Shown here in pieces: positions 1-53,039 of a stretch of DNA of 64,000 bases. Position 1 is the stretch's first letter; every line of letters starts with the position of its first letter. The notes under the pieces were generated by a model, which was given only the letters and a program-made list of their open reading frames with translations, was not told the origin of the DNA and did no database searches. Position numbers and translations under genes: made by a program. The stretch lies in contig JBAZBR010000002.1 in assembly GCA_041671325.1 (NCBI GenBank), forward strand, positions 9,978 to 73,977, written 5' to 3'. This DNA comes from Patescibacteria group bacterium. Lineage in GTDB: Bacteria; Patescibacteriota; Patescibacteriia; PEXW01.

Positions 1-2
1 AC

Positions 3-284
3 CTCCCTTGGGGCTATGACTCCAAGAGTGATCCAGCTAACCAGCACAGTTATAACCATCAATACCGCTTTGGCGCTTCATCCGGAAAATGCTACAAGTC
101 TGGCGAAGGTGAGTTTGCCAGCAACCCATTAGTCAAAGGCCATGAGTATTGCGTAGCCAAGCCAAAAATCCAAATCCAGGATAATTGGGAATGGTGCAAT
201 GGCGGCCGATGCATTGGCAGTTTCCCGTCAACTGATCCAGTTTTTTGGAAGGCTTTTGGAGGCAGCATCATCGTGATCCAGTAA
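3..284 (+). CDS. 3' end of a 5'-truncated gene, 93-aa Cys-containing C-terminal fragment (...CYKSGEGEF...CNGGRCIG...IVIQ*). Hypothetical, likely the first gene of the downstream operon.
   Basis: Open frame from the window edge to TAA at 282-284. The provided ORF track does not list it. Same strand as the gene at 301, 16 nt upstream of it. Confidence 0.3.
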   Translation, partial: LPWGYDSKSDPANQHSYNHQYRFGASSGKCYKSGEGEFASNPLVKGHEYCVAKPKIQIQDNWEWCNGGRCIGSFPSTDPVFWKAFGGSIIVIQ

Positions 285-300
285 AATAAATCAAAAATTA

Positions 301-3300
301 ATGTTAAACCGATTAAGATTAATGTTGAATTGGCTTAAAAAGAATCCTGCTAAAGGCAGTCTTTTGGTTTTGCCAATCATTGCCGTCTTGGTTTATATCC
401 TGGTTCCGCACTCAGCCAGAGCCGCCATTACTTTTGAAGGCGCGATCGTCGGGGTTTTAGGCTGGATTTTTTCCTTTTTTGTCTACATCCTAGGCAACAT
501 TTTGGTCAAGTTTATTGATTTGCTGGTCTGGGTGGCGCAATATAACGATTTTATCAATGCTGAAGCCGTGAGAGTGGGTTGGACTGTGGTCAGGGACTTG
601 GCCAACATGTTCTTCATCGTCGCTTTGCTGGTAATCTCTTTCGGCACGGTTTTCCGCATCCAGGAATACAGGTACAACCGCTTGCTCTCCAAAGTCATCA
701 TTATGGCGGTGCTGATTAATTTTTCCAAAATGATCGCCGCTTTTTTCATTGATGTTTCCCAAGTCATCATGCTGACTTTTGTCAACGCTTTCAAAGACAT
801 GGCGGCGGGCAATTTGACTTCAGGTTTCGGCATTGATAATATCGTTTCTTTTTCCCAAGACGTGTCTGCCCAAGGCGGGGACATTAGCGTTACTTCCGTG
901 GCTGGCGCCATGTTTGCCGCGGTCATCATGCTTTTTGTGGCCACGGTAGTGGTGGCGATTTTCACCCTATATTTAGTCCAAAGGATTGTCATGCTTTGGA
1001 TCTACATCATCCTTTCGCCCATGGCTTACATGCTTGCGGTTTTCCCAGGCAGTCTGGGTTCTTTTTGGAGCACTTGGTGGCGGGACTTCACCCAATATGT
1101 CATTCGCGGGCCAGTTATTGCTTTTTTCCTTTGGCTGGCATTGACGATCATTTCCTTATCCCAAGCCACCAGCACCGGCACTATTTTAGGCACCAATCCT
1201 AATGAATCACAGGTTGGCCAATTGGGCGGCGGAGTTGACGTGTCTGAACAGCAAAAAGACCTTTCGGCTACTGCCTCCAAGGCCACGACCAGTGCCAATA
1301 TTTTGAATTACCTTATGGCGGTTGGTTTATTGGTGGCCGGGTTAATGCAAACGGCTAAGGCCGGCGGCGCCGCCGGCAGCGTGGCTGGCAAATGGATGGG
1401 GAATTTCCAGAAATGGGGCGGAGCCATGGCCACTTCCCCAATCGGTATGGCCAAAGGCGTACTTAAACGGCCGGCTTATGGCGTAGCTGGCGCGGCTTTG
1501 GGCACTGCCGCCCGCTTGCCTTTGGTTGGCACGACTTTTGGCAAATTAAACGCCCGGATGCAGCGCCAGCGCCAAAGAGCTGAAGAAAAAGATACTGACT
1601 GGATTAATTATGCGGATGAAAGAACCGTGAAGAGATTAGCTTTAGCTCAAATCAATTTGACTGAAGGGGGTAGGAAAGAATCGAAGATTGCCCGGGAAAG
1701 GCTGTTGAAGAAAAATGAATTAAAGAATTATAAAACAGAAGATCAAGACCGGGTGCTTAATGATTATCGCCGGGATATTGGTTATAAAGAAAAAGAGCGA
1801 AGTCATGGCGATTTCCATGTAAGCTATAGGGACAGTTATGGTGGCCAAATTTTGGAAGATGCTTACAGGAAAAATCCATCATTAAGGGGCCGTGGTTATG
1901 CTGGCGCTTCACCAAGTAAGCAAGCGTATTTAGATGCAGAAATGAAGAAATTAGCCCAAAGAATGACGCTTGATGATTTTGCTAAAAGTGAACCAAAATC
2001 CTGGGAAGATAATGCCGCAAATGCCCCTTGGCTAGCTCAAGCCTTACCAATTTTAGATGCACGATTGGGCGCAACAGGAAGTGAATTTCTTCATCGATTT
2101 GACGCAAACGTTCCAGAAAGCGTTAAAGACACGATCAGAACAACTATGGGAGGAAGAGGATATACGACTGCTTTTCAAGAAGAAATTGATCAGGAAATGC
2201 AAAAACGCACTGCTGAACAGGTTGCGGAATATGAAGCCAGAGGTTTGGATTTCCATGAATCCGCTGAATACCGCGCCGCTCCCAAAGGCACTTATTATGA
2301 TAAAAATACCTACGGCTTGAACGAACGCCAGCGCCAGCGCGTGGAAGAAAGGATGAAATTGACCAAAGAACAAGGTGATGCTGATTTAACGGCGGGTATA
2401 TCTATGTTTGCTAAAGGTTCCAGTAATATGCTGGCAGTCGATCAGGATGTGCTTGATAAAGCTGGAATTAAATTAGCCGCTGGCGGCCATGTTAAAGATA
2501 AAAGGCAGCTTACCCAATTAGCCGGGGCTCTAAGTGAAAAATTAAATTCAGACATTACGGATATTGAAGGCCAGATATCGGGTATTGCTCTTGAAGAGGC
2601 TGATATGGAACAGCCAACGGGCATGGATGCTTCGGGCAGGCAAATGACTCAGGCTGACCAAAATCCGCAAAGAATGCAGGAGATTGCCGCCAGGCGTGAA
2701 GCCTTGGAAGCTAAACGGGAAAATTTTGTCCAAGCCAGGAACAGGTTGCAATCGGGAAAAGGCTTGGAAGACATGCAATTCATTAATAAGGATAGTTATG
2801 TCGGCAACCGCTGGAACCTGATTGCGGAAGAAGCGACCCACAAAAAAATGGACCAGATGGATCCAGACGGCAGCTTTAGAAAGGGTTTGATGGGAAACAT
2901 GTCTCCGGAAGAAATCCAGTCCATTACCCAAGCCATGCGCGCCAAGACTGGCGACGAGACCTTGTCTGATGAGCGGGCATTTGAAGAATATTTGACCAAA
3001 GGCTTGGTTAATGTCCGGGGTGAAAAATACGCCGACACCATGCCAGACGCGGTTAAGCTTAAGAGTGGTTTGGCTTTAGATATCAAGCGCCAAGCAGAAG
3101 CTAAAGGCGTGAAAATTTCTATGGCTGGTTTAGAACCCGAAGAGATTGAAGCGCCGGGCAAAGTTGGCGGGGTTTCTTCCCGCTTAGGCGCTTTGGGGCG
3201 CAAAGTTACCCAACCCTACCGTGAAGTTAGAGAAGCCAGCCAAAAATCACAAATTGCCAGAAGCGCGGAAGCAACCATGGCCAGTCAGGAAAAATTAGAC

Positions 3301-4620
3301 CAGTTAAACCAAGAATACACTCAGGCTGAACAGCATACCAAAGCTGAAGAAGACAACCTCAAGCGCCTGCAGACCATTTCTAAAGGCAAGGTGGATAAGC
3401 TGATGGGTGATTATAATTCCTTGAATCAGCAACGGCAAACAACGACAGATCCCAGGCAGGCTTCTGAGTATGCCCGGCAAATGAACGCCATCAACGGCCA
3501 AGTCCAGGCCGAGAAAAATAAAGTTTCGGAGCAGCAAAAACGAGTTGAAGCCAGCCGCCAGAATTTTGCGGAAAAGCAGAAACAATTAAGCTTGCAAAAT
3601 TCATTGACTAAGAAATTTGAAGCCGAACAGGCCGCCAAAGAAGCAGGCTATGCCGCGACCATTCCTGGCCAGAAAAATGAAGTCCAACAGGAAAGAATGG
3701 AAGCTGAAAAAGTTCTGCCCGGCATCAATCAAAAGTTTGAGCAGAAAAAGACGGTGGCAGAAAAAGCCTTTGCTGAGCTGGAAGAATTTCAAAAGGGAAA
3801 AGAGATGAATCCGGAAATTAGAAAAATGCTTAAAGATGCTGAAGCCAGCAGAAAGGGTAAACATAAGAAAACTTTGAAATATCAGCTTGGCAAGGCTGAA
3901 AATCTTGCCTCCGCGATTCCATTTGAGGAGCGATACACTGTTGCGGGGACAGGCAAAGCCGATCCTGAGTTGCAACAAAAAATTAGATCTGCCGCTCAAG
4001 CTCAAGCTGAATTTGAACAAGCTGAACAAGAAAAAGCCAGTCAAGACGCTAAAGTCAATGCTTTGAAGACAAGGGAAGCGCAATTGCAAGGGGCGCAAAA
4101 AGCCGCCAGGCCAGTTGCGCCAAAAGCTGTCCCGCCTCCAGTTGCGCAGCCAGCCGTTTCAAAACCAGCCCCTCGCCAAGCAACCGCAGCTAGAACCGTT
4201 ACTCAACCGGCTGCTAAAGCGCCAGAAAAGTCGGTTGCAGAAGCTGAGGCCCCGGCAACGCCAATATCGGTAGAGCAGGTAAATAGGAATAACACTATTA
4301 TTCACGAAGAAATAAAAGGTGCTATGCCCAAGGCGCCCAGCGATTTACGTGATATATTTAAGGTTAATCCAGCGTCATATGACAATCTTTTAAGGCAAAT
4401 TCCTTTTATGAGAGAGTTGAATAATCGTTTGAGGTTTGGTTTTGAAAAAATGTTCAAAGCTAGTAATGTTTCTGATATTACCCAAGAAGCAATTCGGAAA
4501 CAGCTTGCTAATTTACAAAAACACACTAATAACAATGATAGCGACAGTTATAGGGAAGAATTGAAAAAACTGCATGGATTAATTAGTTCCAATTCCGGCG
4601 GAGCAAGCGAAGAAGAGTAA
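301..4620 (+). CDS. TrbL/VirB6-like polytopic membrane protein (N-terminal ~300 aa with multiple TM helices) followed by a ~1100-aa charged, coiled-coil-rich (K/E/Q/A) C-terminal extension with Pro/Ala-rich tail
   Basis: Multi-TM N-terminus with VirB6-like hydrophobic pattern, then long low-complexity coiled-coil region. Lies in an operon with VirB3/VirB4-like genes. Confidence 0.5.
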   Translation: MLNRLRLMLNWLKKNPAKGSLLVLPIIAVLVYILVPHSARAAITFEGAIVGVLGWIFSFFVYILGNILVKFIDLLVWVAQYNDFINAEAVRVGWTVVRDLANMFFIVALLVISFGTVFRIQEYRYNRLLSKVIIMAVLINFSKMIAAFFIDVSQVIMLTFVNAFKDMAAGNLTSGFGIDNIVSFSQDVSAQGGDISVTSVAGAMFAAVIMLFVATVVVAIFTLYLVQRIVMLWIYIILSPMAYMLAVFPGSLGSFWSTWWRDFTQYVIRGPVIAFFLWLALTIISLSQATSTGTILGTNPNESQVGQLGGGVDVSEQQKDLSATASKATTSANILNYLMAVGLLVAGLMQTAKAGGAAGSVAGKWMGNFQKWGGAMATSPIGMAKGVLKRPAYGVAGAALGTAARLPLVGTTFGKLNARMQRQRQRAEEKDTDWINYADERTVKRLALAQINLTEGGRKESKIARERLLKKNELKNYKTEDQDRVLNDYRRDIGYKEKERSHGDFHVSYRDSYGGQILEDAYRKNPSLRGRGYAGASPSKQAYLDAEMKKLAQRMTLDDFAKSEPKSWEDNAANAPWLAQALPILDARLGATGSEFLHRFDANVPESVKDTIRTTMGGRGYTTAFQEEIDQEMQKRTAEQVAEYEARGLDFHESAEYRAAPKGTYYDKNTYGLNERQRQRVEERMKLTKEQGDADLTAGISMFAKGSSNMLAVDQDVLDKAGIKLAAGGHVKDKRQLTQLAGALSEKLNSDITDIEGQISGIALEEADMEQPTGMDASGRQMTQADQNPQRMQEIAARREALEAKRENFVQARNRLQSGKGLEDMQFINKDSYVGNRWNLIAEEATHKKMDQMDPDGSFRKGLMGNMSPEEIQSITQAMRAKTGDETLSDERAFEEYLTKGLVNVRGEKYADTMPDAVKLKSGLALDIKRQAEAKGVKISMAGLEPEEIEAPGKVGGVSSRLGALGRKVTQPYREVREASQKSQIARSAEATMASQEKLDQLNQEYTQAEQHTKAEEDNLKRLQTISKGKVDKLMGDYNSLNQQRQTTTDPRQASEYARQMNAINGQVQAEKNKVSEQQKRVEASRQNFAEKQKQLSLQNSLTKKFEAEQAAKEAGYAATIPGQKNEVQQERMEAEKVLPGINQKFEQKKTVAEKAFAELEEFQKGKEMNPEIRKMLKDAEASRKGKHKKTLKYQLGKAENLASAIPFEERYTVAGTGKADPELQQKIRSAAQAQAEFEQAEQEKASQDAKVNALKTREAQLQGAQKAARPVAPKAVPPPVAQPAVSKPAPRQATAARTVTQPAAKAPEKSVAEAEAPATPISVEQVNRNNTIIHEEIKGAMPKAPSDLRDIFKVNPASYDNLLRQIPFMRELNNRLRFGFEKMFKASNVSDITQEAIRKQLANLQKHTNNNDSDSYREELKKLHGLISSNSGGASEEE

Positions 4621-4628
4621 TATTTTAG

Positions 4629-4781
4629 CCCCTCTCCTATATAGGAGAGGGTGGCCACTGGCCGGGTAAGGTGGGGAAAAACGTAATCCAATTATTCTGA
4701 GCGCCCTCACCCCCGCTTCCTGCCCACCGTACTTCGTCTGCGAAGGCAGGCGGGCGCGTACCCTCTCCCAGAGGGAGAGGG
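4629..4781. repeat. solo GC-rich palindromic repeat cluster (MITE-like) with the same end motifs as the DUF559 elements
   Basis: Contains cccctctcctatataggagagggtgg, ggtaaggtgggg, ccctcaccc and ccctctcccagagggagaggg. Confidence 0.6.
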
Positions 4782-4835
4782 ATTAAAAAATAAGATTTTT
4801 CGACTTCGCTCGTAAAGACAAATTAAAAAAATAAA

Positions 4836-6188
4836 ATGCCAGATTCCTTATTATTAAAATTTCAAAAGTTACCCGATTTGACCAAATCTCGCGCTTCCGA
4901 CCCGGAAGCCATGCGGGTGCTTGACCAATTGGAAAAAGATTTCAGCTTAAACTTGGCTGAATTAGTCATGCGGGTTTTAGTTAAGGAAGTTGCACCGGAA
5001 AAAATTGACGAAGCTTTGAATTTGCAATATTCAGTCGACAGAACCAAAGCCAAGGAGGTTGCTCAAGCCATGCTGGATCGTCTATTTTTCCATTTTCATC
5101 TCTTGGAATTGCCAGATGTTTCCCAAGACAAATCTAAAGAAGGCGAACCTTTAAAACCCCAAAGCGGGGCAAATCCCTATTTGGTTCATCCAGATGATGA
5201 AAAAGATATTTTAACCCATCAAAAATTTCTGCAAAATCCCCCTGCCCAGACAGTCGATACTGATTTTGAAAAGGTGGTCAACCGGATTGTCCAAATGGAA
5301 AGGCTGCAATTGGATGAGATTACCAAGCGGCGCTTTGAAAAAGTTATTGAATCAAGGCTGGTAGACGTTAGGGATAAATTAGAAACCAGGGATATTCTGG
5401 TCCGATCGGAAAAAATTGGCGGCATGGGTTTTGATGATGCCAGGGCTGAAAGGATTGTTGCTGAATTGGAAAGGGTGGTTGAAGAAATTCACCGTCGGCC
5501 TAAGCCTGTGATTGAAAAACCAAAACCAGCCATTCAACCAAAACCAATTCCTCCTCCACCCCCACCCCCGCCTAAAGTTCAGGTTGATCTGAAACCAAAG
5601 GCCGAAAACGAAATTCCTAAACCAGTTCCGAAACCAGTCATGCCAAAACCACCCGAAATCCAATCAACACCAGTTTCAATTTCTACCATTGAAAAACCAA
5701 AAAAGATTGTGGCGCCGCCACCCTGGTTCAGGCCATCAAATATCCCCGCAGTTGCTCAGCCCAGCCAGCCAGTGCAGTCAGCGGTTACGTTCAAGCCAAA
5801 ACCAATTGCCCCGCCCCAACCCAGCTACCAAGAAATGGTTACCGATGTTCGGGCACCGGTTAAGGTAATGGGCCCGATTGAAGTTTTAGCCAGCCTGACT
5901 TTGGAAGATTTTCGGAGGTTAGGCGTTGACCCAGAAGCCAGAACTAAAAAAATTATTGATGAAATTGAAGCCTTAGGTAAAGATTCTTTTGGCCAAAAAG
6001 CGGCCGGTATCCAAGCTTGGCGAAAATCCCCGACTTTCCAAAATTACCTTCAGATCGGGCAAATGGCCATGGAAAAGAAAGAGGATTTAACTGACATTAT
6101 CCAGTTGTTAAAAGCCCAGGGCAAGCCCTCTTTAGGTACGGATGAATTTGAGGCTATTGGCGCCCTCATGAGGCAATTTAGATTTTAA
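4836..6188 (+). CDS. hypothetical proline-rich protein (PKP/PPPPPPPP tract) with no TM segment
   Basis: 450-aa ORF with ATG start, in operon context. Confidence 0.5.
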   Translation: MPDSLLLKFQKLPDLTKSRASDPEAMRVLDQLEKDFSLNLAELVMRVLVKEVAPEKIDEALNLQYSVDRTKAKEVAQAMLDRLFFHFHLLELPDVSQDKSKEGEPLKPQSGANPYLVHPDDEKDILTHQKFLQNPPAQTVDTDFEKVVNRIVQMERLQLDEITKRRFEKVIESRLVDVRDKLETRDILVRSEKIGGMGFDDARAERIVAELERVVEEIHRRPKPVIEKPKPAIQPKPIPPPPPPPPKVQVDLKPKAENEIPKPVPKPVMPKPPEIQSTPVSISTIEKPKKIVAPPPWFRPSNIPAVAQPSQPVQSAVTFKPKPIAPPQPSYQEMVTDVRAPVKVMGPIEVLASLTLEDFRRLGVDPEARTKKIIDEIEALGKDSFGQKAAGIQAWRKSPTFQNYLQIGQMAMEKKEDLTDIIQLLKAQGKPSLGTDEFEAIGALMRQFRF

Positions 6189-6191
6189 TTT

Positions 6192-6671
6192 ATGATGCAA
6201 TTTGTAGTTCCCCAATTCATTGATGTCGAAGACAAGATTTTAGGGCCTTTAACCGTCCGCCAATTCTTGTTGCTCTTAGCCTGGGGTATTGTAGGTTTTT
6301 TATCCTTCAAGATCATGAGCTTCTTTACCTTCATATTTTTTGCAATTTTTTGGTCGGGTTTTATTTTTCTGCTGGCTTTTATCAAAATCAACGGCCGGCC
6401 TTTCCATTATTTCATCCTTTCAATTTTGCAGACCGAACGCATGCCAAAGTTGCGCATCTGGCATAAGGAAGATACTGAATATGAATTCCGTTTTGCGGCC
6501 GCCAAGGCCTTAAAACCAAAAACCCCGATAGCCCAAAAGCAGCCCCTCACCGCTTCCCGACTGACCGAACTTTCCTTAGTCGTAGATACTGGCGGCGTTT
6601 ATGATGAAACCGGCGATGTGGTGGCTGAAACTTTAAAAAATTCCAATGGCAAATACAGACCGACAAATTAA
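6192..6671 (+). CDS. PrgI/VirB3-like small T4SS membrane protein
   Basis: N-terminus MMQFVVPQFIDVEDKILGPLTVRQFLLLLAWGIVGFLSF matches the PrgI-family pattern (acidic motif, then GPLT..RQF and two TM helices). Directly upstream of and overlapping VirB4. Confidence 0.5.
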   Translation: MMQFVVPQFIDVEDKILGPLTVRQFLLLLAWGIVGFLSFKIMSFFTFIFFAIFWSGFIFLLAFIKINGRPFHYFILSILQTERMPKLRIWHKEDTEYEFRFAAAKALKPKTPIAQKQPLTASRLTELSLVVDTGGVYDETGDVVAETLKNSNGKYRPTN

Positions 6672-7326
6672 ACTCAAAGCCCCATCAACCCAAAAGTTCT
6701 TGGATGTCTGGGAAATCAAGGATGATGTAGTCATCTTGAAAAACGGCACTATCCGGAGCGTGCTTTTGGTTTCTTCCATGAATTTTGCTCTAAAAAGCGA
6801 CGAGGAGCAGGCGGCTGTCATTCAGGCTTACACTCAATACTTGAATATTATCGATTTTCCTTTGCAGATAGTCATCCAATCCAGGAAGTTGAACATTGAC
6901 CCTTATTTGGACAACCTTAAAGTCATTGAGAAAGCCCAAACCAACGAGCTTTTAAAAATGCAAACCCAAGAATACATCACTTACGTCAAAGAGCTGGTTG
7001 AGTTGGCCGATATTATGTCCAAAAGGTTTTACGTGGTCGTGCCTTTTGAACAAATTACCAAGAAGCGCCAAGGCTTTTTCAAGCGCTTGACGACCGTCAT
7101 TTCGCCCACTAACGTCATCCATATCAAGCAAAAAAGGTTTTTGGAAATGCGGGATGACTTGATGAAGCGGGTTGATTTTGTGGTGGATGGGCTTTCCGGA
7201 CTGGGCTTAAAAGCAGTACCCCTGGATACCCAAGGCTTGATTGAACTTTTTTATACGACCTATAACCCGCAAACTTCTGATCAGCAGAAGTTGGGGAATT
7301 TTGAACAATTGAGCGTTGAAAAATAA
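6646..7326 (+). CDS. VirB4/TraC/TrbE-family ATPase, N-terminal (CagE_TrbE_VirB-like) portion, separate ORF
   Basis: N-terminal region typical of Gram-positive-type VirB4. Ends with TAA overlapping the ATG of the next ORF (TAATG). Confidence 0.55.
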   Translation: MANTDRQIKLKAPSTQKFLDVWEIKDDVVILKNGTIRSVLLVSSMNFALKSDEEQAAVIQAYTQYLNIIDFPLQIVIQSRKLNIDPYLDNLKVIEKAQTNELLKMQTQEYITYVKELVELADIMSKRFYVVVPFEQITKKRQGFFKRLTTVISPTNVIHIKQKRFLEMRDDLMKRVDFVVDGLSGLGLKAVPLDTQGLIELFYTTYNPQTSDQQKLGNFEQLSVEK

Positions 7327-9224
7327 TGGCCATTAATTTATCCAAAAAACCCAAGGCAATGCAAGCGGAAACCCTTCCGCCTGTTCAAATTATGACTGAG
7401 GAAGAGGTGCAGCAGCAGTCAGGAATTGAATTGCAACGGAAGCGGGAAATGCTTGAGGCCGAAAGAATTTACCGCCGGGGCGTGGTTTCGGTTAGGGATT
7501 TTATTGCCCCGGCCTCGTTCAAAGTTTCAGCCAAAGAGGTGGAAATCGGCGGCAAGCTAGCCCGAACCATGTTCATCGTCACCTACCCTCGGTATATTGC
7601 CGTGGGTTGGTTTGCCCCAATTATTAATTTGAACGTGCCTTTGGATGTTTCCATGTTTTTCTACCCCGTCGGTTCAGAAGTGGTGCTCAAGCAATTACGC
7701 AATAAGGTAGGCCAATTGGAAGCCCAAATTTTATCAGATGCGGAAAAAGGCGCGCCCCGCGATCCAATTCGGGAAACGGCCTTGCGGGACATTGAACAGC
7801 TCCGCGATAATTTGACCCAAGGTACGGAAAAATTTTTCCAAGTTGCGCTTTATGTAACTCTTTATGGCGATAATAAAGAGGATTTGGACAAGCTCAGCGA
7901 TAAGGTCGAGTCTATGTTTGGCTCTAAATTGGTTTTTAGCAAGCGCGTCCTATACCAGGCTGAGCAAGGTTTTAATTCAACCTTACCCATTGGCAAAGAT
8001 GAATTGCAGGTATATTTCAACATGAATTCTTCGCCAGCGGCCAGCAGTTTCCCTTTTATTTCTTCAGATGTTTCTTCAGACAATGGCATACTTTATGGCA
8101 TTAACCGCCATAATAATTCTTTGATCCTATTTGACCGCTTTAGCCTGCAAAACGCGAATTTTGTGGTTTTTGCCACTTCTGGTGCGGGCAAAAGCTATGC
8201 CGTCAAGTTGGAAATACTCCGTTCGCTCATGGTTGGCACGGATGTTATCGTCATTGACCCTGAAAGGGAATATAAATATTTATCCGATGCGGTTGGCGGC
8301 ACTTATATCAACATCTCCTTGAATTCTGAATCAAAAATCAATCCCTTTGATTTGCCTCGGGCGGTTGGCGGCGCGGAAAAACCAGCAGACATCATCCGGG
8401 CCGCGGTCATTACTTTAAAAGGCATGTTGCGGCTTATGCTAGGCACCGTAACTCCAGAGGAAGATTCAATCATCGATCGGGCCTTGATTGAAACCTATGC
8501 CAAAAAAGACATAACTGCCGAATCCGATCTGACTACGGTTGAACCGCCATTGATGGCGGATTTCCAAGAGGTTTTATCCGGCATGGTTGGCGCTGAAGGC
8601 ATAACTGAAAGGATTAAAAAATACACCGAAGGCACCTTTTCCGGCCTCTTTAACAGTCCCACCAATATTGAACTCAGGAACCAGTTAGTCACCTTTTCCG
8701 TAAGGGATTTGGAAGATGAATTAAGGCCGATTGGCATTTCCATCATCGTCTCTTATATTTGGAATGTAGTCAGGTCGCAGCTGAAAAAGAGGATTTTGGT
8801 TATTGATGAAGCCTGGTGGCTGATGCAGAACGAAGATTCGGCCAAATTCATTTATGCTTTGGTTAAACGCTGCCGGAAATATTATTTGGGTGTCACGACC
8901 ATAACCCAAGACGTGAATGATTTCTTGCGTTCGCCCTATGGCCAGGCCATTGTCACTAATTCGGCTTTGCAGCTGCTCATGAAACAGTCGCCCGCGGGCA
9001 TTGATATGATCGCCAAGACTTTCATGCTGACCCAAGGTGAAAAATATTTATTGCTGGAAGCCGCGGTTGGCGAAGGTATATTTTTTGCCGGGCCCAAGCA
9101 TGCGGCCATAAAAGTCGTGGCTTCGTACACAGAAGACCAAATAATCACCTCTGACCCCAGGCAGCTTTTGGAAATCGAGGCGGCCAAAAAGGAATTTAAT
9201 GAAAGCAATCCCCAATCCAGTTAA
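7326..9224 (+). CDS. virB4: VirB4/TraC/TrbE-family T4SS ATPase, C-terminal ATPase portion
   Basis: Walker A FATSGAGKSY. VIDPEREY and VIDEAWW (Walker B-like) motifs. Architecture typical of VirB4. Confidence 0.8.
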   Translation: MAINLSKKPKAMQAETLPPVQIMTEEEVQQQSGIELQRKREMLEAERIYRRGVVSVRDFIAPASFKVSAKEVEIGGKLARTMFIVTYPRYIAVGWFAPIINLNVPLDVSMFFYPVGSEVVLKQLRNKVGQLEAQILSDAEKGAPRDPIRETALRDIEQLRDNLTQGTEKFFQVALYVTLYGDNKEDLDKLSDKVESMFGSKLVFSKRVLYQAEQGFNSTLPIGKDELQVYFNMNSSPAASSFPFISSDVSSDNGILYGINRHNNSLILFDRFSLQNANFVVFATSGAGKSYAVKLEILRSLMVGTDVIVIDPEREYKYLSDAVGGTYINISLNSESKINPFDLPRAVGGAEKPADIIRAAVITLKGMLRLMLGTVTPEEDSIIDRALIETYAKKDITAESDLTTVEPPLMADFQEVLSGMVGAEGITERIKKYTEGTFSGLFNSPTNIELRNQLVTFSVRDLEDELRPIGISIIVSYIWNVVRSQLKKRILVIDEAWWLMQNEDSAKFIYALVKRCRKYYLGVTTITQDVNDFLRSPYGQAIVTNSALQLLMKQSPAGIDMIAKTFMLTQGEKYLLLEAAVGEGIFFAGPKHAAIKVVASYTEDQIITSDPRQLLEIEAAKKEFNESNPQSS

Positions 9225-9239
9225 ATCTTAAAAAATAAT

Positions 9240-9836
9240 ATGTCAAAAAAGCTATTAATCATTCTTGCTGGAGCCGTAATTATTACCCTTGCCCTTTTAG
9301 TTTTATTATTCGTTTGGCAAAAGAAGGCGCCTAGCAACACTAATGCCAAAAATACCAATGCCAAAATCCCCAATATCAACACGGTGATTGTCAACCAAAA
9401 CTCAAACCAGAACGCAAACACCCAGCCAGTTGATTCAAATATCAATGACAAGCTTACAGTCCAGCAAGTTGCCCGGAGTTTCGCCGGTATATACGGAAGT
9501 TTTTCCACCCAAAATGATTTTCAGAATATCACTGATTTGTATTTTTACATGACCCCGCAACTGAAAGCCCAGCAAGAGGGCTATGTCGCCACCGAAAGGC
9601 AAAACCGCAAAGATAATTCTCTGTATCGGGGCATCACTTCGGAAGTCCGGATTGTAAATTTGGAAAGTTTTGACGCCCAAAACAAGACCGCGACCGTTAA
9701 AATCTCCTTGCAAAGAGTCGAATCAAGCGGCAGCACCAGCGAGAGTACCAATTATTACCAGGACATCACTTTAAGTTTTGAAAAACAGGATGGCGTCTGG
9801 AAAGTCGGCAAAATTGTTTGGGGGCCTAAGCAATAA
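9240..9836 (+). CDS. bitopic membrane protein with N-terminal TM, Asn-rich linker and C-terminal NTF2-like domain. Possible VirB8-like T4SS component.
   Basis: TM helix at aa 6-26. C-terminal ~120 aa resembles an NTF2-like fold. Position immediately after VirB4. Confidence 0.35.
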   Translation: MSKKLLIILAGAVIITLALLVLLFVWQKKAPSNTNAKNTNAKIPNINTVIVNQNSNQNANTQPVDSNINDKLTVQQVARSFAGIYGSFSTQNDFQNITDLYFYMTPQLKAQQEGYVATERQNRKDNSLYRGITSEVRIVNLESFDAQNKTATVKISLQRVESSGSTSESTNYYQDITLSFEKQDGVWKVGKIVWGPKQ

Positions 9837-9844
9837 TAGCTATT

Positions 9845-10558
9845 ATGGCAACTGCACAAGAAAATCAGCGATTAAGTGCGTTGACGCAAAGTAGTATAGT
9901 AAATAAAAGATTACAGGATGATATTTCAAAATTGACCAAGACGGATTTTCCCACGTGGGATGCGGCCCAAAGCGAACAAGGCAGGATGCAGATGGATTCA
10001 ATTATGGACAGGCAGACAAATAACAGAAGTTCAATACGTACTTCAGCTGATCAGCAAAAACAGGAACAAGGCAGGCTTTCAAGCCGTTTGAAACAATTAC
10101 GCAATATTAGAAAACAGTACGTTGATCAATTAGCCGCCAGCCCGATGGCCGAAGCCGTTACAGTCGCAAACCAGGCTTGGGCAAAGCAAGTGGATCTTTG
10201 GCAATCAGGCTTGGCTATTGGGGTTTGGGGTTTTGATATTGTGGTTTCGGATTGGCTTTTTATTTTGATTTGGCTGGCCAGGGTTTTTTCTCCTCTATTG
10301 CCCAAGCCGCGAGGGTTGCAGATTGTCCCGAGTTATAGCCTGAGAACCATGGGTGGCATTGGCACGGCCATCAGCCACGCCGGGACTGCCTTTTTTGCCG
10401 GGATTTGCTACTTAATCATCATTGTTTTTGTCGGGATAATCGCTTGGTTTGTCATGCAAATAGTCAATGGGAGCTTTTTGGAAAAAATTCAGGCGCTCTA
10501 TTATTTATTTACAGGCCCGTTGACGCCAATTTATGATGTGTTACAAAGCGCTTTATGA
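9845..10558 (+). CDS. hypothetical membrane protein with N-terminal coiled-coil and C-terminal 3-4 TM helices
   Basis: ORF with 4-nt overlap to the next gene. Hydrophobic C-terminus. Confidence 0.45.
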   Translation: MATAQENQRLSALTQSSIVNKRLQDDISKLTKTDFPTWDAAQSEQGRMQMDSIMDRQTNNRSSIRTSADQQKQEQGRLSSRLKQLRNIRKQYVDQLAASPMAEAVTVANQAWAKQVDLWQSGLAIGVWGFDIVVSDWLFILIWLARVFSPLLPKPRGLQIVPSYSLRTMGGIGTAISHAGTAFFAGICYLIIIVFVGIIAWFVMQIVNGSFLEKIQALYYLFTGPLTPIYDVLQSAL

Positions 10559-11754
10559 AGCAGTTTAAATTACTAATCATATTTTTTTTCGCCATTGCCG
10601 CTTTTTTATTTTCCCAACCGGTAAAAGCGGCTCTGGTGAGTTGTGATGAAAACGCAAAAGATTCAAATGGCAACTACATGAATGCTGGGCAAATTGAGCT
10701 GAAATGGATCCATGTCCAATTGCCCATTCCCGGGGTTACGGCGAATTGCGTTGATGACCAAGGCAAGAGCGTGGCCTATATCCAAGACCTCGGAGCCTAT
10801 ATTGCCGGCATGTATAAGTGGTTTTCCGGCGCCATTGGCATCCTGGCCGCCGTCATGGTCATGTACGGCGGGATAAAATGGATGGTGGCCGCGGGCAACC
10901 GCAGCCGAGTCCAAGACGCCAAAGAAACGGTTTTTACCGCCCTTATCGCCGTGGTAATTGCCCTCGGTTCTTATCTCTTGCTTTTTGTCATTAACCCAAA
11001 ATTAGTCAACTTACGGCCGCCAGCCTTGAGCACGGTCAAGCCAGTTTTGCAGAGCTTTGCCATGTGCCCGACCTTTAAAATTTGCCTATCCGGAACTAAC
11101 AAAGGCCAAGCCTGCGTCTTAGACACGGCCTGCGGGGCGCCGGCTAATTCCGGCGCTTGCGACTATGCCGTGGACGTGGGGACGGATATAGAACCAACAT
11201 GCGGCAATGAATACACTTATCGGGAAAAAGCCACGGGTTCTGGCACGTGTCGTGGTTCAGTCTGCCATGATAAGGACAAAAATGTCACTAATGATGTTTG
11301 TACGCTTGGCACCTGGAAGGACTCTGTTTTTTTGCCCAAGGCAATTGGTGGGACTTCTTGGGGCTGTACATCACCCGTACGACAATGCGAATCCATTACC
11401 GATGATAACGGTTCGGCGGCAGATTGTTCGCAATTTAGCATTGCCGGAAAAGGTAAGTGTGCTTGGATAGATTATCCTATGCTTGATCCAAAATCTGATG
11501 GTTGTTATTGGTTCCCAGTGCTTGAATGCGAACAGGGATATGAACGAGTTGGGTGTGATATATGTAATAATTCCGAACCGTTTGTCATTACTCAGTGTAA
11601 TCTTCAGCGTTGTTCCGAAGGGAGACTTTCAAAATGTATTTCGACTCAAGGAGAAATAGTATATTCTAATGATCTAACCCCAGACAAAAAAAATTGTAAG
11701 TCTATTTGTTGTAGAAAAGTTGGCGATACTGACTTAAAATGTTCAGCCCAATAA
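10555..11754 (+). CDS. secreted Cys-rich protein containing a TrbC/VirB2-like T4SS-pilin hairpin (two hydrophobic helices, MYGGIKWMVAAGN motif) and a ~240-aa C-terminal domain with about 28 cysteines
   Basis: Signal peptide MKQFKLLIIFFFAIAAFLFSQPVKA. Pilin-like helix-loop-helix at aa ~78-152. Paralogous to aa 170-245 of the gene at 13696. Confidence 0.55.
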   Translation: MKQFKLLIIFFFAIAAFLFSQPVKAALVSCDENAKDSNGNYMNAGQIELKWIHVQLPIPGVTANCVDDQGKSVAYIQDLGAYIAGMYKWFSGAIGILAAVMVMYGGIKWMVAAGNRSRVQDAKETVFTALIAVVIALGSYLLLFVINPKLVNLRPPALSTVKPVLQSFAMCPTFKICLSGTNKGQACVLDTACGAPANSGACDYAVDVGTDIEPTCGNEYTYREKATGSGTCRGSVCHDKDKNVTNDVCTLGTWKDSVFLPKAIGGTSWGCTSPVRQCESITDDNGSAADCSQFSIAGKGKCAWIDYPMLDPKSDGCYWFPVLECEQGYERVGCDICNNSEPFVITQCNLQRCSEGRLSKCISTQGEIVYSNDLTPDKKNCKSICCRKVGDTDLKCSAQ

Positions 11755-11802
11755 TATAGATTTATTCCTTATCGCCTGGATTTTTAATGCTATTATGAAT
11801 AT

Positions 11803-13059
11803 ATGAACCGTCGAACCTTAGTAATCCTTGCCTTTATAATCGGGGTTATTGCCATCGGTTTTGTTTTGTATATCATGTTTTTCAAACCCTTGCCCCCAGC
11901 CGTCAACCAGAATGGCAACCTTAACACTAATTCGGTTTTGCCTAATATAAACGGCAATGTCAATCGGCCCCAAAATGTTAATGGCGGCTTGCCAAATATC
12001 AATACTGCAAATGTTAATAAGCCCACGGCTAATGTGAATGCCGGTCCGGCAGTCATTGCTGATGGCGGGGATACCCAAGTAAAGACTTTGATTTCCGCGA
12101 ATGCTTTTGACACGGTTATTGATGCCAAAGGCAATTTGCGCTACTACGATAAAGCCTCTGGCCAATTTTTCAAACTTGACGAAAACGGGAATTTAATCGC
12201 CTTGTCCCAAGTCAAGTTTCCTGAAGCCGAAGATATTGCCTGGTCGCCCAGCCGGAGCCAGGTCATAGTCAGTTTTCCGGATGATTCCAAAATCTTTTAT
12301 GATTTTGAAAATAAAAAACAGGCGACTTTGCCCAAAGAAGGCCAAGATTTCAGTTTTGATCCCACTGGCACGCAGATTGCATTCAAGTACAATGCCGCCA
12401 ATGAAGCTGACCGTTTTTTGGTGGTGTCCAGCCCAGACGGCAGTTCCATAACCCCAATTGAACCTTTGGGTGAAAACGGGAGCAGGGTCCAAGTCAACTG
12501 GTCGCCTAACAACCAAGTCATTGCCACTTATTCTCCAGGCCTGAATGATACTAGCCAGGAAGTGCTTTTAGTCGGCAAAAATGGCGAAACTTTTAAATCC
12601 ATAGCCACAGCTGGCCGGGGTTTTGAAGGCACATGGTCTTCTAATGGCCAGCAAATGTTATATAGCGTTTATAATGCCCAAACAAACTATAATCCCACTT
12701 TGTATATAGTAAATGCCCAAGGCGATGCCGCCGGTACGAATAACCGGCCTTTGGAAATTAACACCTGGTCTGACAAATGCACTTTTAACAAGGCCGGCAC
12801 CTCGATTTATTGCGCCGTGCCTGACACTTCAAGTTTACCGGCGGGCAGCGGGATTTACCGTAACCAGGCAAACAACACCACGGATTCTTTTTATTCAGTC
12901 GACCTTTTAACCGGGGCTAAGAACAAGTTAGCCGTGCCAGTTGGGTCTGATGGCAGCCGCCAGTTTTCCGCTAAAAACCTGTGGCTTTCGGCTGATGGCA
13001 GCACTTTATATTTTACCGACGGCCCCACTGGCAAGGTTTTAGAGATGAAAATCCATTAA
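11803..13059 (+). CDS. membrane-anchored PD40/TolB-like beta-propeller protein with Asn-rich linker
   Basis: N-terminal TM. Repeated WSP/WSPN/WSSNG-type propeller blades. Confidence 0.5.
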   Translation: MNRRTLVILAFIIGVIAIGFVLYIMFFKPLPPAVNQNGNLNTNSVLPNINGNVNRPQNVNGGLPNINTANVNKPTANVNAGPAVIADGGDTQVKTLISANAFDTVIDAKGNLRYYDKASGQFFKLDENGNLIALSQVKFPEAEDIAWSPSRSQVIVSFPDDSKIFYDFENKKQATLPKEGQDFSFDPTGTQIAFKYNAANEADRFLVVSSPDGSSITPIEPLGENGSRVQVNWSPNNQVIATYSPGLNDTSQEVLLVGKNGETFKSIATAGRGFEGTWSSNGQQMLYSVYNAQTNYNPTLYIVNAQGDAAGTNNRPLEINTWSDKCTFNKAGTSIYCAVPDTSSLPAGSGIYRNQANNTTDSFYSVDLLTGAKNKLAVPVGSDGSRQFSAKNLWLSADGSTLYFTDGPTGKVLEMKIH

Positions 13060-13066
13060 AACTAGT

Positions 13067-13699
13067 ATGCAAAAAAGGGAAAATATTTTTTTTCTGATCT
13101 TCGGTGGCCTAGCCGTGCTGGTTTTGGTTGTCCTAATGATAAACACTTTTAGCACGAAAAAGGTGATAAAAGATTTATCCCCAAGGATTTTCAGCACCGA
13201 TCCCTATTTAGGCAAGTCCAATGCCAAGGTTACTTTAGTCATTTTTACGGACTTTGAATGCGAATATTGCCGGGCAGAAGTGCCGATTTTAAAAAGCCTT
13301 ATGGCCAGCAATCAAAATTCCGTCAAATTGGTATATAAAGATTATCCTTTAAGCATCCACAAAAACGCCAGGCGGGCGGCGGAAATTGCCAGGTGCGCCC
13401 AAGACCAAGGCGGCGGCCAGGGAAAATTTTGGGCCATGCATGACCAATTGTTCCAGAACCAGGATACTTTGGGCGCTTTAGATTTAGAGAAAATAAGCAA
13501 AGACGTGGACATTGATTCGGCCAAATTAAAGGCTTGTTTGGACTCCCAAGCTGCGGCTAAACGCATTGATGATAATATTGCTGAAGGCCAGCGCTTGAAT
13601 GTTACGGAAACCCCGACGCTTTTTGTGAATGAAAGGCGGATTACCGGCTTGAATGAAGAATCAGTCATCCAAACTTATATTAACCATGTATTGCAATGA
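13067..13699 (+). CDS. DsbA-family thiol:disulfide oxidoreductase (thioredoxin fold, CEYC active site), membrane anchored
   Basis: FTDFECEYCRAEVP CxxC motif. DsbA-like length. N-terminal TM. Confidence 0.7.
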   Translation: MQKRENIFFLIFGGLAVLVLVVLMINTFSTKKVIKDLSPRIFSTDPYLGKSNAKVTLVIFTDFECEYCRAEVPILKSLMASNQNSVKLVYKDYPLSIHKNARRAAEIARCAQDQGGGQGKFWAMHDQLFQNQDTLGALDLEKISKDVDIDSAKLKACLDSQAAAKRIDDNIAEGQRLNVTETPTLFVNERRITGLNEESVIQTYINHVLQ

Positions 13700-15057
13700 A
13701 AGTCTTGAGGCTTTTATTTTTATCAGCATTTTTATTAACGGGACTTTTGGCATTTCCAGGTAATGGAAAAGCTGGTTGCTGCCTTTGCGGGAATTTAAAT
13801 GACGACAATTTTCAATGTCTAATAAATGTTACTGAGGCCGAGTGCAATTCTTGCGGTAATTTCCCCCATCCGTTTTATGAGACCAATGATGCCTGTACGA
13901 ATTTTTGCGCCAAGCCAGTTGATGTTAGTTTAAAAAATTGCTGTGTTTATACGGGCAAGATAGATAAATTAGTAAAGGAATGCAAAGCCGTCCAGGATGA
14001 AACTTCCTGCCAGACAGGTGAATTTGAAATTAACCGGAAAGAATATATTGCCCAGGATTGCGCCAAACAGCCCCAATGCAGTTTAATCGGATCAAAGTAT
14101 GTAGCAGAAAAAAAATCAGACATATATTTCAAGCCCCAGGTTTCTTTGCTTGGTTCAAAATTTATCGCTGGTGAGGAAATTGTCATAACCGGCAATACTT
14201 TAGGCGAATACATTGCCGCCTTTTACGTCTTTTTTGTTTCAGCAATTGCTATTTTGGCTGCGGTCATGATTATGTATGGAGGCATTAAATGGCTGGTGGC
14301 TGGCGGCAATCGTGGCCAAGTCCAAAATGCCAAAGAGCAGATTACTTCAGCGATTATCGGCTTATTAATCGCTTTTGCCGCTTATCTATTATTGCTTTCC
14401 ATCAGCCCAAAATTGGTCAAGTTTACCAGCCTGAATATAACCAGCATCAAACCAATTGAGCAGGCCATAAATAAGCAAGAAATCGCTTATGGTTCAAAGG
14501 GCAACCCCTTGGGAAAAGCTACTATGTCAAAAACTTGGTACGAAAACGTAAAAGCCAAATATGGCTCATTTGTTGCCACAGCAGCAAAAAATACCGGTAT
14601 TGATGAGAATTTAATTTACGCCATAATGTTCGTGGAATCTGGTGGGCAACCCAATTTGTCATCTGAAGCGGGCGCTTGCGGCTTAATGCAATTATTGCCG
14701 GCAACTGCCAGCCAAGTCATGAAAACCGGAGTCTCCTGTTCTGATTTATACAACCCTTCATTTGGGATTGCGGCGGGCGCGGCTTACTTGGCACAGCTTA
14801 AGGAGGATACTTGCCCTGATCATGCCATGAAAAAAGACGAGAGTATTGTTTCCTGCACGCCCAGCTTAACCAAGTGTACGGATGGCGATTTAATGTTTGT
14901 GATTGCGGCATATAACGGCGGCCAAGGGGCTAATTGCAGCAGCGTAGATTGTCCAGGCCAGACCTGGTGGGAATGTCCGGTTAATACTGGTTATCAGCAA
15001 ACCAGGGATTATGTCATAAAAGTCCAGAACAATTTGAAAATAATTAGTGATTATTAG
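13696..15057 (+). CDS. secreted fusion protein with an N-terminal Cys-rich domain, a TrbC/VirB2-like pilin hairpin, and a C-terminal SLT-type lytic transglycosylase (VirB1-like)
   Basis: Signal peptide. About 20 Cys in aa 27-135. AILAAVMIMYGGIKWLVAGGN pilin-like hairpin. SLT motifs IYAIMFVESGG and ACGLMQL. Confidence 0.65.
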   Translation: MKVLRLLFLSAFLLTGLLAFPGNGKAGCCLCGNLNDDNFQCLINVTEAECNSCGNFPHPFYETNDACTNFCAKPVDVSLKNCCVYTGKIDKLVKECKAVQDETSCQTGEFEINRKEYIAQDCAKQPQCSLIGSKYVAEKKSDIYFKPQVSLLGSKFIAGEEIVITGNTLGEYIAAFYVFFVSAIAILAAVMIMYGGIKWLVAGGNRGQVQNAKEQITSAIIGLLIAFAAYLLLLSISPKLVKFTSLNITSIKPIEQAINKQEIAYGSKGNPLGKATMSKTWYENVKAKYGSFVATAAKNTGIDENLIYAIMFVESGGQPNLSSEAGACGLMQLLPATASQVMKTGVSCSDLYNPSFGIAAGAAYLAQLKEDTCPDHAMKKDESIVSCTPSLTKCTDGDLMFVIAAYNGGQGANCSSVDCPGQTWWECPVNTGYQQTRDYVIKVQNNLKIISDY

Positions 15058-20598: not shown

Positions 20599-20868
20599 TT
20601 AAATTTCGGATTTAGTAAAATATTCTATCAGCATGGTACGTATTGTCGTTTTACCTTTTGCTGTTTTGAAGTATTTTTCCCTTCGTAGTGCATCATATTT
20701 ATTGGCATAAGCTTCAAAAAAAATTAAATCAAATGGTATACGCGGTTTTGTGGACGGAACCTTGCCTGAATTGTGCTGAATGAGTCGGTTAAATACATTA
20801 TCCGTAAAACCGATATAAAGACGTTTATCGCGCTTGCTTTGTAAAATGTAAACATAGAAATATTTCAT
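20599..20868 (-). CDS. stand-alone GIY-YIG nuclease family protein (90 aa)
   Basis: MKYFYVYILQS...LYIGFTDNVFNRLIQHN GIY-YIG motif. The ORF-track version (to 21018) reads through the tRNA; the internal Met at 20868 was chosen as start. Confidence 0.7.
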   Translation of the reverse strand: MKYFYVYILQSKRDKRLYIGFTDNVFNRLIQHNSGKVPSTKPRIPFDLIFFEAYANKYDALRREKYFKTAKGKTTIRTMLIEYFTKSEI

Positions 20869-20905
20869 AACATTTATAGTCAATGCAATGCACTGGGTGG
20901 CGGAG

Positions 20906-20927
20906 CCATGCACCGTACGGTGCATGG
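20906..20927. repeat. 20-bp perfect palindrome CATGCACCGTACGGTGCATG fused to the CCA end of tRNA-Ser(GCT). A second copy at 23039-23058 is fused to the tRNA-Ser pseudo-copy.
   Basis: Identical 20-mer at both loci, each immediately 3' of ...CTCTCCGCCA. Confidence 0.6.
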
Positions 20928-21016
20928 CGGAGAGTAGAGGATTCGAACCTCTGCGGGACTTTTTAGATCCCCGCGGTTTAGCAAACCGCTGCCTTAAGCC
21001 GCTCGGCCAACTCTCC
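20926..21016 (-). tRNA. tRNA-Ser (anticodon GCT), type II with long variable arm, CCA encoded
   Basis: GGAGAGTTGGCCGAGCGG...anticodon loop TTGCTAA...GGTTCGAATCC...ACTCTCCGCCA. Cloverleaf folds manually. Confidence 0.8.
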
Positions 21017-21159
21017 ACGGATCATCATGAACTTCACCCTTCGCATCCTCGCATTTGCGAGTTTGCTTCGGGTTTCGTTCGTGTGCTCCTCTCCCCATTG
21101 ATACCAAAGGTATCAATGGGGACCCCTAAAATAAATATTACAAAAGATTCATCCAGAAG

Positions 21160-52903: not shown

Positions 52904-53039
52904 AATTTTTGAAAAGCAAGATTGCCGCGCTTCCTTGTAAGAGCGAGGTCGCTCGCAATGACCGATCTTTAATCAACCGTCTTTGCGAGTCCCGCAGCCG
53001 CGGCAGGGACGGGAAAGGAGGGAGAAAGTAAGGCAATGG

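Follow-up and report, generated by a model that had tools for sequence, protein, structure and literature searches.

What kind of machine is encoded by a gene set that resembles a type IV secretion system (T4SS), yet carries neither a recognisable coupling protein nor a relaxase? In this study, we addressed this question for a train of genes at positions 301–15057 of a 64,000-nt stretch of DNA from a Patescibacteria group bacterium (assembly GCA_041671325.1, contig JBAZBR010000002.1, positions 9,978 to 73,977 of the forward strand), the whole of which is called the window in the following. We arrive at the reading, with a probability of roughly 0.78, that the locus is a chromosomal, vertically inherited T4SS of the Patescibacteria clade, related to MPF-FATA, present in the arrangement of the class ABY1 (Kerfeldbacteria-like) and serving contact and exchange. 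It represents no new kind of system: it is an instance of the already known, published Patescibacteria T4SS, to which it adds detail on accessory genes. Every protein of the window was compared by tblastn with related loci, 435 of which were recognised by their VirB4 in a species-level genome collection; the comparisons reported here use the best 80 of these 435 (L001–L080). The open reading frames (ORFs) of the train are numbered O1 to O11, as listed in Table 1.

At the centre of the locus stands VirB4. The larger of the two ORFs concerned, O5, matches P-loop_TraG (2e-26) together with AAA_10 and DUF87 of Pfam, exceeds the cut-off of the NCBIfam model conju_CD1110 (355.5 bits against 325, over profile positions 177–729 of 752) and retains intact Walker A (GAGKS) and Walker B (VIDEAW) motifs. 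The preceding ORF, O4, aligns with positions 101–238 of the 894 positions of VirB4_plasma, the profile of VirB4 from the mycoplasma integrated conjugative element (ICE), at 1.3e-9, and O5 covers positions 292–893 of the same profile. Since both align consecutively on one VirB4 profile, O4 and O5 are, as judged from these alignments, collinear pieces of a single VirB4 in a TrsD-type arrangement and not paralogues. O4 additionally matches TrsD (NF041427) at 9e-5, below the curated cut-off, and its public gene call carries a precomputed PF26593 TraC-like match; when the TrsD-like and VirB4 families were aligned with hhalign, no signal was obtained (probability 0.06). The split into a TrsD-like part and VirB4 was observed in all 80 loci, with identities of O4 between 48 and 84%. 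Apparent fusions of PrgI with the TrsD-like protein in L006, L007, L013 and L054 were rejected, as an in-frame stop separates the two genes on translation.

Upstream of the split VirB4, O3 could be assigned to the PrgI/VirB3-like proteins (PF12666, 8.9e-9, 36.2 bits against a gathering score of 27) and contains two or three overlapping hydrophobic segments. O1 begins with roughly 8–10 hydrophobic segments in residues 1–350, followed by a hydrophilic tail of ~1,090 aa that is rich in A, E, K and Q and free of Cys, as in an "extended VirB6"; the public gene call starts later and yields 1,432 instead of 1,439 aa. No Pfam, NCBIfam or other hidden Markov model (HMM) matches O1 itself. Among its homologues, however, 12 of 44 match TrbL (PF04610), and a further homologue with the same gene order (P0039) matches TrbL_3 (PF19590), so that by way of its relatives O1 appears VirB6/TrbL-like. 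In related loci, tblastn aligned only about the N-terminal quarter of O1 (median coverage 0.25). Profile searches of PDB sequences with the VirB6-like and the TrsD-like families returned noise or low-complexity matches only. Between O1 and O3 lies O2, for which neither a Pfam or NCBIfam match nor a transmembrane segment nor a Cys residue was found. Its AlphaFold model displays three helical domains with Pro-rich linkers at a pLDDT of ~90, and Foldseek with this model gave no PDB fold match at E<=1e-3. O2 is present in 79 of the 80 loci and belongs to a family of 2,720 representative clusters (E<=1e-3, global protein library). The gene resides upstream of PrgI in every context examined; here as well as in the closest loci it immediately follows the VirB6-like gene, and a distant member of the family was found in the same gene context.

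Downstream of VirB4, O6 was modelled with a transmembrane helix that a disordered linker rich in Asn connects to three helices and a sheet of four strands (pLDDT 74.7; the structure models were built on shallow alignments of 18 and 25 sequences). Foldseek against the PDB returned NTF2-like folds, among them the VirB8-like OrfG (8s7l) at rank 2 with 3.1e-4 and the VirB8 domain of PrgL (7aed) at rank 13 with 6.8e-4 and a target TM-score of 0.54. Neither Pfam nor NCBIfam matched O6, and a profile of 44 orthologues found nothing among PDB sequences. The gene directly follows virB4 in 68 of the 80 loci, and the model is compatible with a VirB8 architecture at the level of the fold only. O7, with a hydrophilic N-terminal half, two C-terminal hydrophobic segments and no family match, is poorly conserved and was recognisable in only the 6 nearest loci.

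The remaining ORFs encode proteins with signal peptides or membrane anchors. O8 matches T4SS_pilin (PF18895) at 3.8e-5 with 24.1 bits, just under the gathering score of 26.6, as well as the Mbov_0395 pilin-like family at 3.7e-4, while O11 passes the same gathering score with 37.6 bits (2.3e-9); the two pilin cores are 53% identical over 90 aa (E 2e-29). O8 consists of a signal peptide, a VirB2-like helical hairpin and a C-terminal domain of ~230 aa, which holds 24 of its 26 Cys residues. O11 is composed of a signal peptide, a Cys-rich N-terminal domain, a VirB2-like hairpin and an SLT lytic transglycosylase domain (6.1e-21) with intact ES, GLMQ and AYNGG motifs, which would provide a VirB1-like function. 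SLT domain and pilin core share one ORF in 16 related loci, and pilin cores in relatives always lie within ORFs of about 300–570 aa. O10 matches Thioredoxin_4 (1e-27) and DSBA (6e-18) and has a CEYC active site behind an N-terminal transmembrane segment. O9 carries an N-terminal transmembrane anchor and showed sub-threshold matches only (PD40 at 5.5e-4, the THOC3 propeller at 1.8e-5). It is presumably extracytoplasmic and was found in 57 related loci at 35–71% identity; profile and single-sequence searches of PDB sequences gave nothing useful for it. The two helices of the pilin hairpins are connected by a positively charged loop, and the resulting topology is self-consistent, with signal peptides, a charged hairpin loop, outward-facing Cys-rich and SLT domains and a DsbA encoded between the two fusions.

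The initial annotation of this DNA, made from the sequence, had described some 15 kb of co-directional, overlapping genes, and this layout is confirmed by the ORF listing with 11 ORFs on the + strand and radA directly behind, its start 2 nt past the stop of O11. Spacing within the train ranges from -26 to +48 nt, the sole exception being 215 nt at 4621–4835, and the GC content of 0.44–0.47 equals that of the flanks. O2, O4 and O7 had been omitted. Profile-HMM annotation, which had been proposed as a check, returned T4SS families for PrgI, VirB4 and the pilin cores. The PrgI/VirB3-like protein, VirB4, both VirB2-like pilin fusions (O8 by its core, which is so similar to that of O11) and DsbA all stand as named. 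The other four names hold in part. For the VirB6-like giant there are TrbL matches among homologues and the polytopic N-terminus, but no model matches O1 directly; for the VirB8-like guess, transmembrane helix and NTF2 fold are present in the model, but sequence homology to VirB8, PrgL or TraM was not found; the SLT is real but turned out to be the C-terminal domain of a pilin fusion and not a separate gene; and the propeller protein retains weak matches to propellers without a firm confirmation of its identity. What has to be revised is the description of the operon as compact and starting at 301. A gene for a giant Cys-rich protein runs in the same direction and ends 17 nt ahead of the ATG of O1. 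Cut by the window start, it encodes 3,048 aa in the source contig (L081, region 1–4093), where a precomputed Dockerin_1 match is given; its last 1,364 aa contain 49 Cys residues, and Pfam found no match in the C-terminal 1,363 aa. Homologues were detected in 30 related loci (tblastn, E<=1e-5), directly upstream of the VirB6-like gene wherever coordinates were checked. The conserved genes of the cluster begin with this giant gene, and position 301 is therefore not the cluster's start.

Table 1. Coordinates of the cluster genes, the adjoining radA and the palindromic repeat elements within the window
Feature	Positions	Strand	Basis
Giant Cys-rich secreted/surface protein gene, 3' end	1..283	+	stop at 281-283; cut by window start
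O1, VirB6/TrbL-like polytopic membrane protein, 1,439 aa	301..4620	+	hydropathy, composition, HMM matches of homologues
Inserted GC-rich palindromic repeat element	4621..4835	none	two CCTCTCC-loop-GGAGAGG hairpins
O2, predicted cytoplasmic protein, orphan fold, 450 aa	4836..6188	+	AlphaFold model, synteny
O3, PrgI/VirB3-like small membrane protein, 159 aa	6192..6671	+	PF12666
O4, TrsD-like, split-off N-terminal part of VirB4, 226 aa	6646..7326	+	VirB4_plasma, TrsD NF041427
O5, VirB4 ATPase (remaining N-terminal region and C-terminal motor), 632 aa	7326..9224	+	conju_CD1110, P-loop_TraG
O6, bitopic, NTF2-like domain predicted extracytoplasmic (VirB8-like), 198 aa	9240..9836	+	AlphaFold, Foldseek
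O7, small membrane protein, 237 aa	9845..10558	+	hydropathy; no family match
O8, pilin-core fusion 1, 399 aa	10555..11754	+	PF18895 near threshold
O9, N-terminally anchored, weakly beta-propeller-like, 418 aa	11803..13059	+	weak PD40/propeller matches
O10, membrane-anchored DsbA-type thiol-disulfide oxidoreductase, 210 aa	13067..13699	+	Thioredoxin_4, DSBA
O11, pilin-core fusion 2 with SLT, 453 aa	13696..15057	+	SLT, T4SS_pilin
radA (sms), 445 aa	15060..16397	+	TIGR00416; not a T4SS part, last gene of the train
Palindromic elements	4621-4835; 27382-27495; 32508-32527; 49097-49370; 53481-53501; 61006-61026		

Vertical inheritance is suggested by the conservation of the locus. VirB4 identity amounts to 71–92% in the best 80 of the 435 loci, most of which are labelled Patescibacteria, Parcubacteria, Kerfeldbacteria, Buchananbacteria or Veblenbacteria, about a quarter "uncultured Gammaproteobacteria" or "bacterium" and one Pirellulales; the closest loci belong to metagenome-assembled genomes of the Kerfeldbacteria/Buchananbacteria type. 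In most of the 80 loci the order is VirB6-like, O2, PrgI, TrsD-like, VirB4 and O6, continued by pilin fusion, propeller-like protein, DsbA, pilin/SLT fusion and radA, with recG following on the opposite strand. Median identities reach 76% for VirB4, 56% for the TrsD-like protein, 54% for RadA, 47% for PrgI and 46% for RecG, the others ranging between 30 and 42%. A deviating order was observed in eight loci (L042, L047, L052, L056, L065, L068, L073 and L077), where the downstream genes are reversed relative to virB4, with recG on the + strand and radA and the propeller-like gene on the - strand. radA was detected in five of these eight, on the same strand as the propeller-like gene and adjoining it. 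This order looks like a block inversion, which suggests two transcription units, with radA kept in the unit of the exported components where it was detected.

The gene content can be compared with three groups of known systems. The closest likeness is found in the work of Quinonero-Coronel et al. 2025 (PMC12102498), in which Patescibacteria VirB4 proteins form a monophyletic clade related to MPF-FATA. TrsD is the commonest companion of these VirB4 proteins there, PrgI/VirB3, VirB6 and VirB2-like pilins of PF18895 accompany them too, VirB8 homologues are almost confined to the class ABY1, VirB1 is rare, relaxases are almost absent and homologues of the type IV coupling protein (T4CP) mostly lie far from virB4 (PMC12102498). 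T4SS loci of ABY1 adjoin comF, recG and radA, and one of our related loci, L031, belongs to Kerfeldbacteria RIFCSPLOWO2_02_FULL_42_19 (GCA_001818315.1), listed as ABY1 and VirB4-positive in Table S1 of the same source (PMC12102498). The locus studied here agrees in its VirB4 with adjacent TrsD-like protein, its PrgI/VirB3-, VirB6-, VirB2- (PF18895) and VirB8-like proteins, its chromosomal position beside radA, recG and comF and the lack of a nearby relaxase, T4CP and outer-membrane core. It differs in that its VirB2-like cores lie inside fusions of 300–570 aa, one of them with SLT, and in having DsbA, the propeller-like protein, the orphan-fold cytoplasmic protein and the Cys-rich protein of ~3,000 aa, details which we did not encounter in PMC12102498 by term searches and partial reading; a search of its text gave no mention of DsbA, thioredoxin or a propeller.

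A similar subunit set is present in the Saccharibacteria, a comparison that the initial annotation had called for, and the minimal T4SS-like set of monoderm and Patescibacteria type which it proposed matches the descriptions given in PMC12102498, PMC10633639 and PMC12857230. In Southlakia epibionticum, the homologous cluster is essential for epibiotic growth, and neither a coupling protein nor a relaxase is recognisable in it (Wang et al. 2023, PMC10633639). The T4SS of strain ML1 (SEML1_0006-0019) shares with our locus the Gram-positive-like subunits, VirB2-like pilins, which are essential there, and the chromosomal position, and is likewise encoded in a monoderm, ultra-small epibiont (PMC10633639). 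It belongs to the class Saccharimonadia, however, and essentiality was shown only there (PMC10633639). It has an array of six small pilins, with peptidase and lysozyme genes downstream of its virB4, in contrast to the two large pilin-core fusions with SLT found here, and in its proteome no structural VirB8 homologue was detected (PMC12102498), whereas here a protein of NTF2 fold follows virB4. A 2025 review describes Patescibacteria T4SSs as unique among monoderm T4SSs in being essential and possibly pilus-making (PMC12857230), and it has been suggested that tubular structures seen where parasite and host meet are T4SS pili (bioRxiv 10.64898/2026.06.21.733656).

The third group comprises the MPF-FATA systems (Prg/Pcf of pCF10, Trs of pGO1, the Clostridioides CD1110 type and the mycoplasma ICE), with which the locus shares a VirB4 above the cut-off of the CD1110 family and pilin cores that weakly match the Mbov_0395 pilin-like family of the mycoplasma ICE. 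Its order of VirB6-like, VirB3-like, VirB4 and VirB8-like genes resembles PrgH-I-J-(K)-L. The split into TrsD and VirB4 is a further likeness, the TrsD family of pGO1 being named in PMC12102498. Unlike these systems, the locus has no relaxase, T4CP or PrgB-type adhesin and is not situated on a plasmid or ICE, and it encodes VirB2-like proteins, which are normally missing from Gram-positive conjugation systems (PMC12857230; PMC12102498).

Taking these components together, a mechanism can be proposed. Sec would export the parts bearing signal peptides, and DsbA would form the disulfides of the Cys-rich domains. The positively charged hairpin loop would face the cytoplasm and thereby put the Cys-rich domains and the SLT outside, where the hairpin-tethered SLT could open the peptidoglycan locally, next to the machine. 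The role of VirB4 in the assembly of conjugative pili is established, and we extrapolate it to this locus: VirB4, seated on PrgI and the VirB6-like protein, would use ATP to pull pilin hairpins from the membrane. The extracted hairpins might then build a pilus-like or contact structure reaching the host cell, which would serve attachment and the exchange of macromolecules or nutrients. Within this scheme, the giant Cys-rich protein and the Cys-rich appendages of the pilins are candidate host-binding parts, and O2 and the long tail of the VirB6-like protein candidate cytoplasmic docking parts. radA, at the 3' end, is probably transcribed as a passenger.

Several points weigh against this reading and should be kept in view. 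Because a scan for consensus promoters and terminators gave sites no commoner than in shuffled sequence, we infer the operon structure, and with it the idea of a single operon, from spacing only. The assignments of VirB6 and VirB8 draw on transitive and on fold-level evidence, respectively, and NTF2-like folds are common, the CaMKII hub, LinA and Tim44 scoring equal to VirB8 in the Foldseek search with O6. All VirB2-like cores found are built into proteins of 300–570 aa, which puts the polymerisation of such fusions into a pilus in question. The lack of T4CP and relaxase is a statement for the 64-kb window, distant copies being possible, and in Table S3 of PMC12102498 two ABY1 genomes have matches to T4CP profiles far from virB4. 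In favour of the reading, VirB4 surpasses RadA in identity in all 33 of 33 paired loci, the median difference being 23 points, and seems to be under strong purifying selection, unusually so for a secretion ATPase; the choice of the 80 loci by VirB4 similarity somewhat inflates this contrast, although the gap is large. Finally, function in ABY1 is extrapolated by analogy from the Saccharibacteria, a different class.

The genes adjoining the locus raise the question of whether the machine could take up DNA, in the manner of ComB of Helicobacter or Ced of archaea, with RadA, RecG and ComF processing the incoming DNA for recombination or nucleotide salvage. The radA, recG, comF, ligA and UDG genes named in the initial annotation were all recovered by HMM scans of the window (recG at 17630–19693 and comF at 27743–28399, both on the - strand; RadA by TIGR00416 with 548 bits against a cut-off of 403). 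radA lies next to the last T4SS gene, stays within 150 nt downstream of a cluster gene and on the same strand in 25 of 37 related loci, and travels with the pilin/propeller block where the downstream order is inverted. Co-localisation across ABY1 is read as possible functional coordination in PMC12102498. Furthermore, ComB of H. pylori (PMC12857230) and the crenarchaeal Ced (PMC9905601) are known T4SS-like importers which likewise consist of VirB4, VirB6 and VirB2-like sets without T4CP, relaxase or VirB11. The likeness ends at the diderm VirB7/9/10 core of ComB, which has no counterpart in this cluster, and at the Ced proteins, which are not detectably orthologous to those found here: VirB4 weakly matches CedB, but with 35 bits against a cut-off of 700, and the score for CedD is 19 bits against 600. 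The link of this cluster to DNA is limited to the neighbouring repair genes, and radA and recG are universal repair genes; where genomes are small and highly syntenic, such neighbours can be inherited together without being functionally linked. In the one genetically tractable relative, S. epibionticum, the T4SS proved essential, comEC, comF and dprA could each be dispensed with, and transformation needs ComEC (PMC10633639); competence there has been attributed to type IV pili (PMC12857230). Type IV pili, with which ComF and RadA are conventionally paired, are encoded by a cluster of the same window, in which comEC and dprA were not found. DNA import by this machine would therefore be disfavoured on the analogy of the Saccharibacteria data, and we consider it unlikely, while the linkage to radA, recG and comF itself is real and conserved.

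A broader proposal, which we hold to be improbable as a whole, is that the T4SS of ABY1 has been rebuilt beyond the Saccharibacteria model. Its VirB2-like hairpins may serve as modules for anchoring or polymerisation, on which SLT and Cys-rich binding domains are displayed, with a dedicated DsbA, O9 and the surface protein of ~3,000 aa in support; the O2 family may stand in for the coupling protein; and host DNA or other nucleic acid may be imported for recombination or salvage through the coupling to radA, with recG and comF nearby. If true, this would make the system a monoderm bacterial counterpart of ComB or Ced.

Turning to conjugation, a true conjugative or mobilising T4SS would need a coupling protein and a relaxase that lie in another part of the genome or have diverged beyond recognition. 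Pfam scans of ~55 ORFs across the 64 kb gave no match to T4CP (VirD4), relaxase, VirB9, VirB10 or VirB11, in agreement with what the initial annotation had noted for the window, and no integrase was detected in Pfam scans of the same stretch. A 357-aa T2SSE ATPase was considered as VirB11 and rejected, as it is PilT (TIGR01420 with 299 bits against 21.7 for VirB11) and lies in the type IV pilus cluster. A full conjugative module just outside the window, which the initial annotation had named as refuting its reading, was not seen in two more distant relatives either: their ~20-kb neighbourhoods contain neither T4CP nor relaxase but housekeeping genes upstream (ksgA in both, uvrD also in one), beyond a giant or several surface-protein genes. 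"Lacking a coupling protein" is thus a correct description within the window, but does not extend beyond it, given the T4CP matches located elsewhere in two ABY1 genomes. These are t4cp1 matches away from virB4 with 92–97% profile coverage, and T4CP genes are often distant in general, only 148 of 5,713 homologues in 2,918 Patescibacteria genomes lying near virB4 (both from PMC12102498). The VirB4 found here also passes the cut-off set for a model of conjugal-transfer ATPases. On the other hand, the same source counts only 109 homologues of relaxases, spread over 103 genomes of Patescibacteria, and reports that the t4cp homologue of S. epibionticum is non-essential, while the T4SS genes are essential (PMC12102498). 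The cluster is fixed in the chromosome with the same order in most of the best 80 relatives, the 64 kb bear no signature of a mobile element (no integrase, level GC content), and a VirB4 identity of 71–92% would be unusual for transfer genes of a plasmid or ICE. With neither relaxase nor T4CP in 64 kb and no mobile element carrying the locus, the machine most likely does not serve conjugation, and we regard a conjugative function as very unlikely. The decaying remains of an integrated conjugative element, non-functional and stripped of DNA-processing genes, could be suspected from the missing relaxase and T4CP, the distribution of VirB4 over two ORFs and the repeat element inserted between two genes, but this reading is effectively refuted by conservation: all ORFs are intact, as are the catalytic motifs of VirB4, SLT and DsbA, the TrsD-like/VirB4 split is the conserved state, and order and content are kept in dozens of relatives, the opposite of decay.

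The remainder of the window holds further features. The type IV pilus cluster at 33746–60019 encodes PilM, PilB (573 bits), a response regulator, PilT, PilC, PilD, at least 6 pilins with N-methyl motif, a Wzy_C/TPR protein, a dockerin-domain protein and two large unannotated proteins of 617 and 1,308 aa; it is likely the competence and adhesion apparatus of the organism. A family of GC-rich, intergenic palindromic elements (CCTCTCC, a loop of 5–7 nt and GGAGAGG, often with a CCCTCACCC box) is present in 10 copies where 0 are expected. The element between O1 and O2 folds as RNA with -80.9 kcal/mol (z -3.97), and since close relatives have a junction of 3–9 nt in place of the 215 nt observed here, it resembles a REP/MITE-like insertion. 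Five of the 10 copies adjoin three ORFs of DUF559 (Vsr-like endonuclease) at 48696–49052, 52983–53516 and 61073–61441, inside or just after the pilus cluster. Direct repeats of 87 nt (48654 and 49184) lie on either side of the first, and two of the three have a 74-nt stretch in common at 73% identity; a possible reading is that of selfish or mobile genes tied to the palindromic repeats. Rfam found only three tRNAs over the whole window, one of which, tRNA-Ser(gct) at 20925–21016 (-), is overlapped on the same strand by a 139-aa ORF with a GIY-YIG domain (20599–21018, -); either this ORF has been called too long at its start, or the tRNA is adjoined by a small GIY-YIG gene.

With the reading of a Patescibacteria-clade T4SS for contact and exchange, the locus bears on a group that makes up a large share of bacterial diversity and apparently lives on other cells, and whose T4SS is the first shown to be essential for its own carrier bacterium. 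It provides a clean and complete ABY1 example, in which VirB4 is constrained more than RadA and is collinearly split, and it shows that a pilin-like hairpin can act as the tether of a peptidoglycan hydrolase. O2, O9, DsbA and the giant Cys-rich protein are candidates for the missing parts of substrate recognition and host contact.

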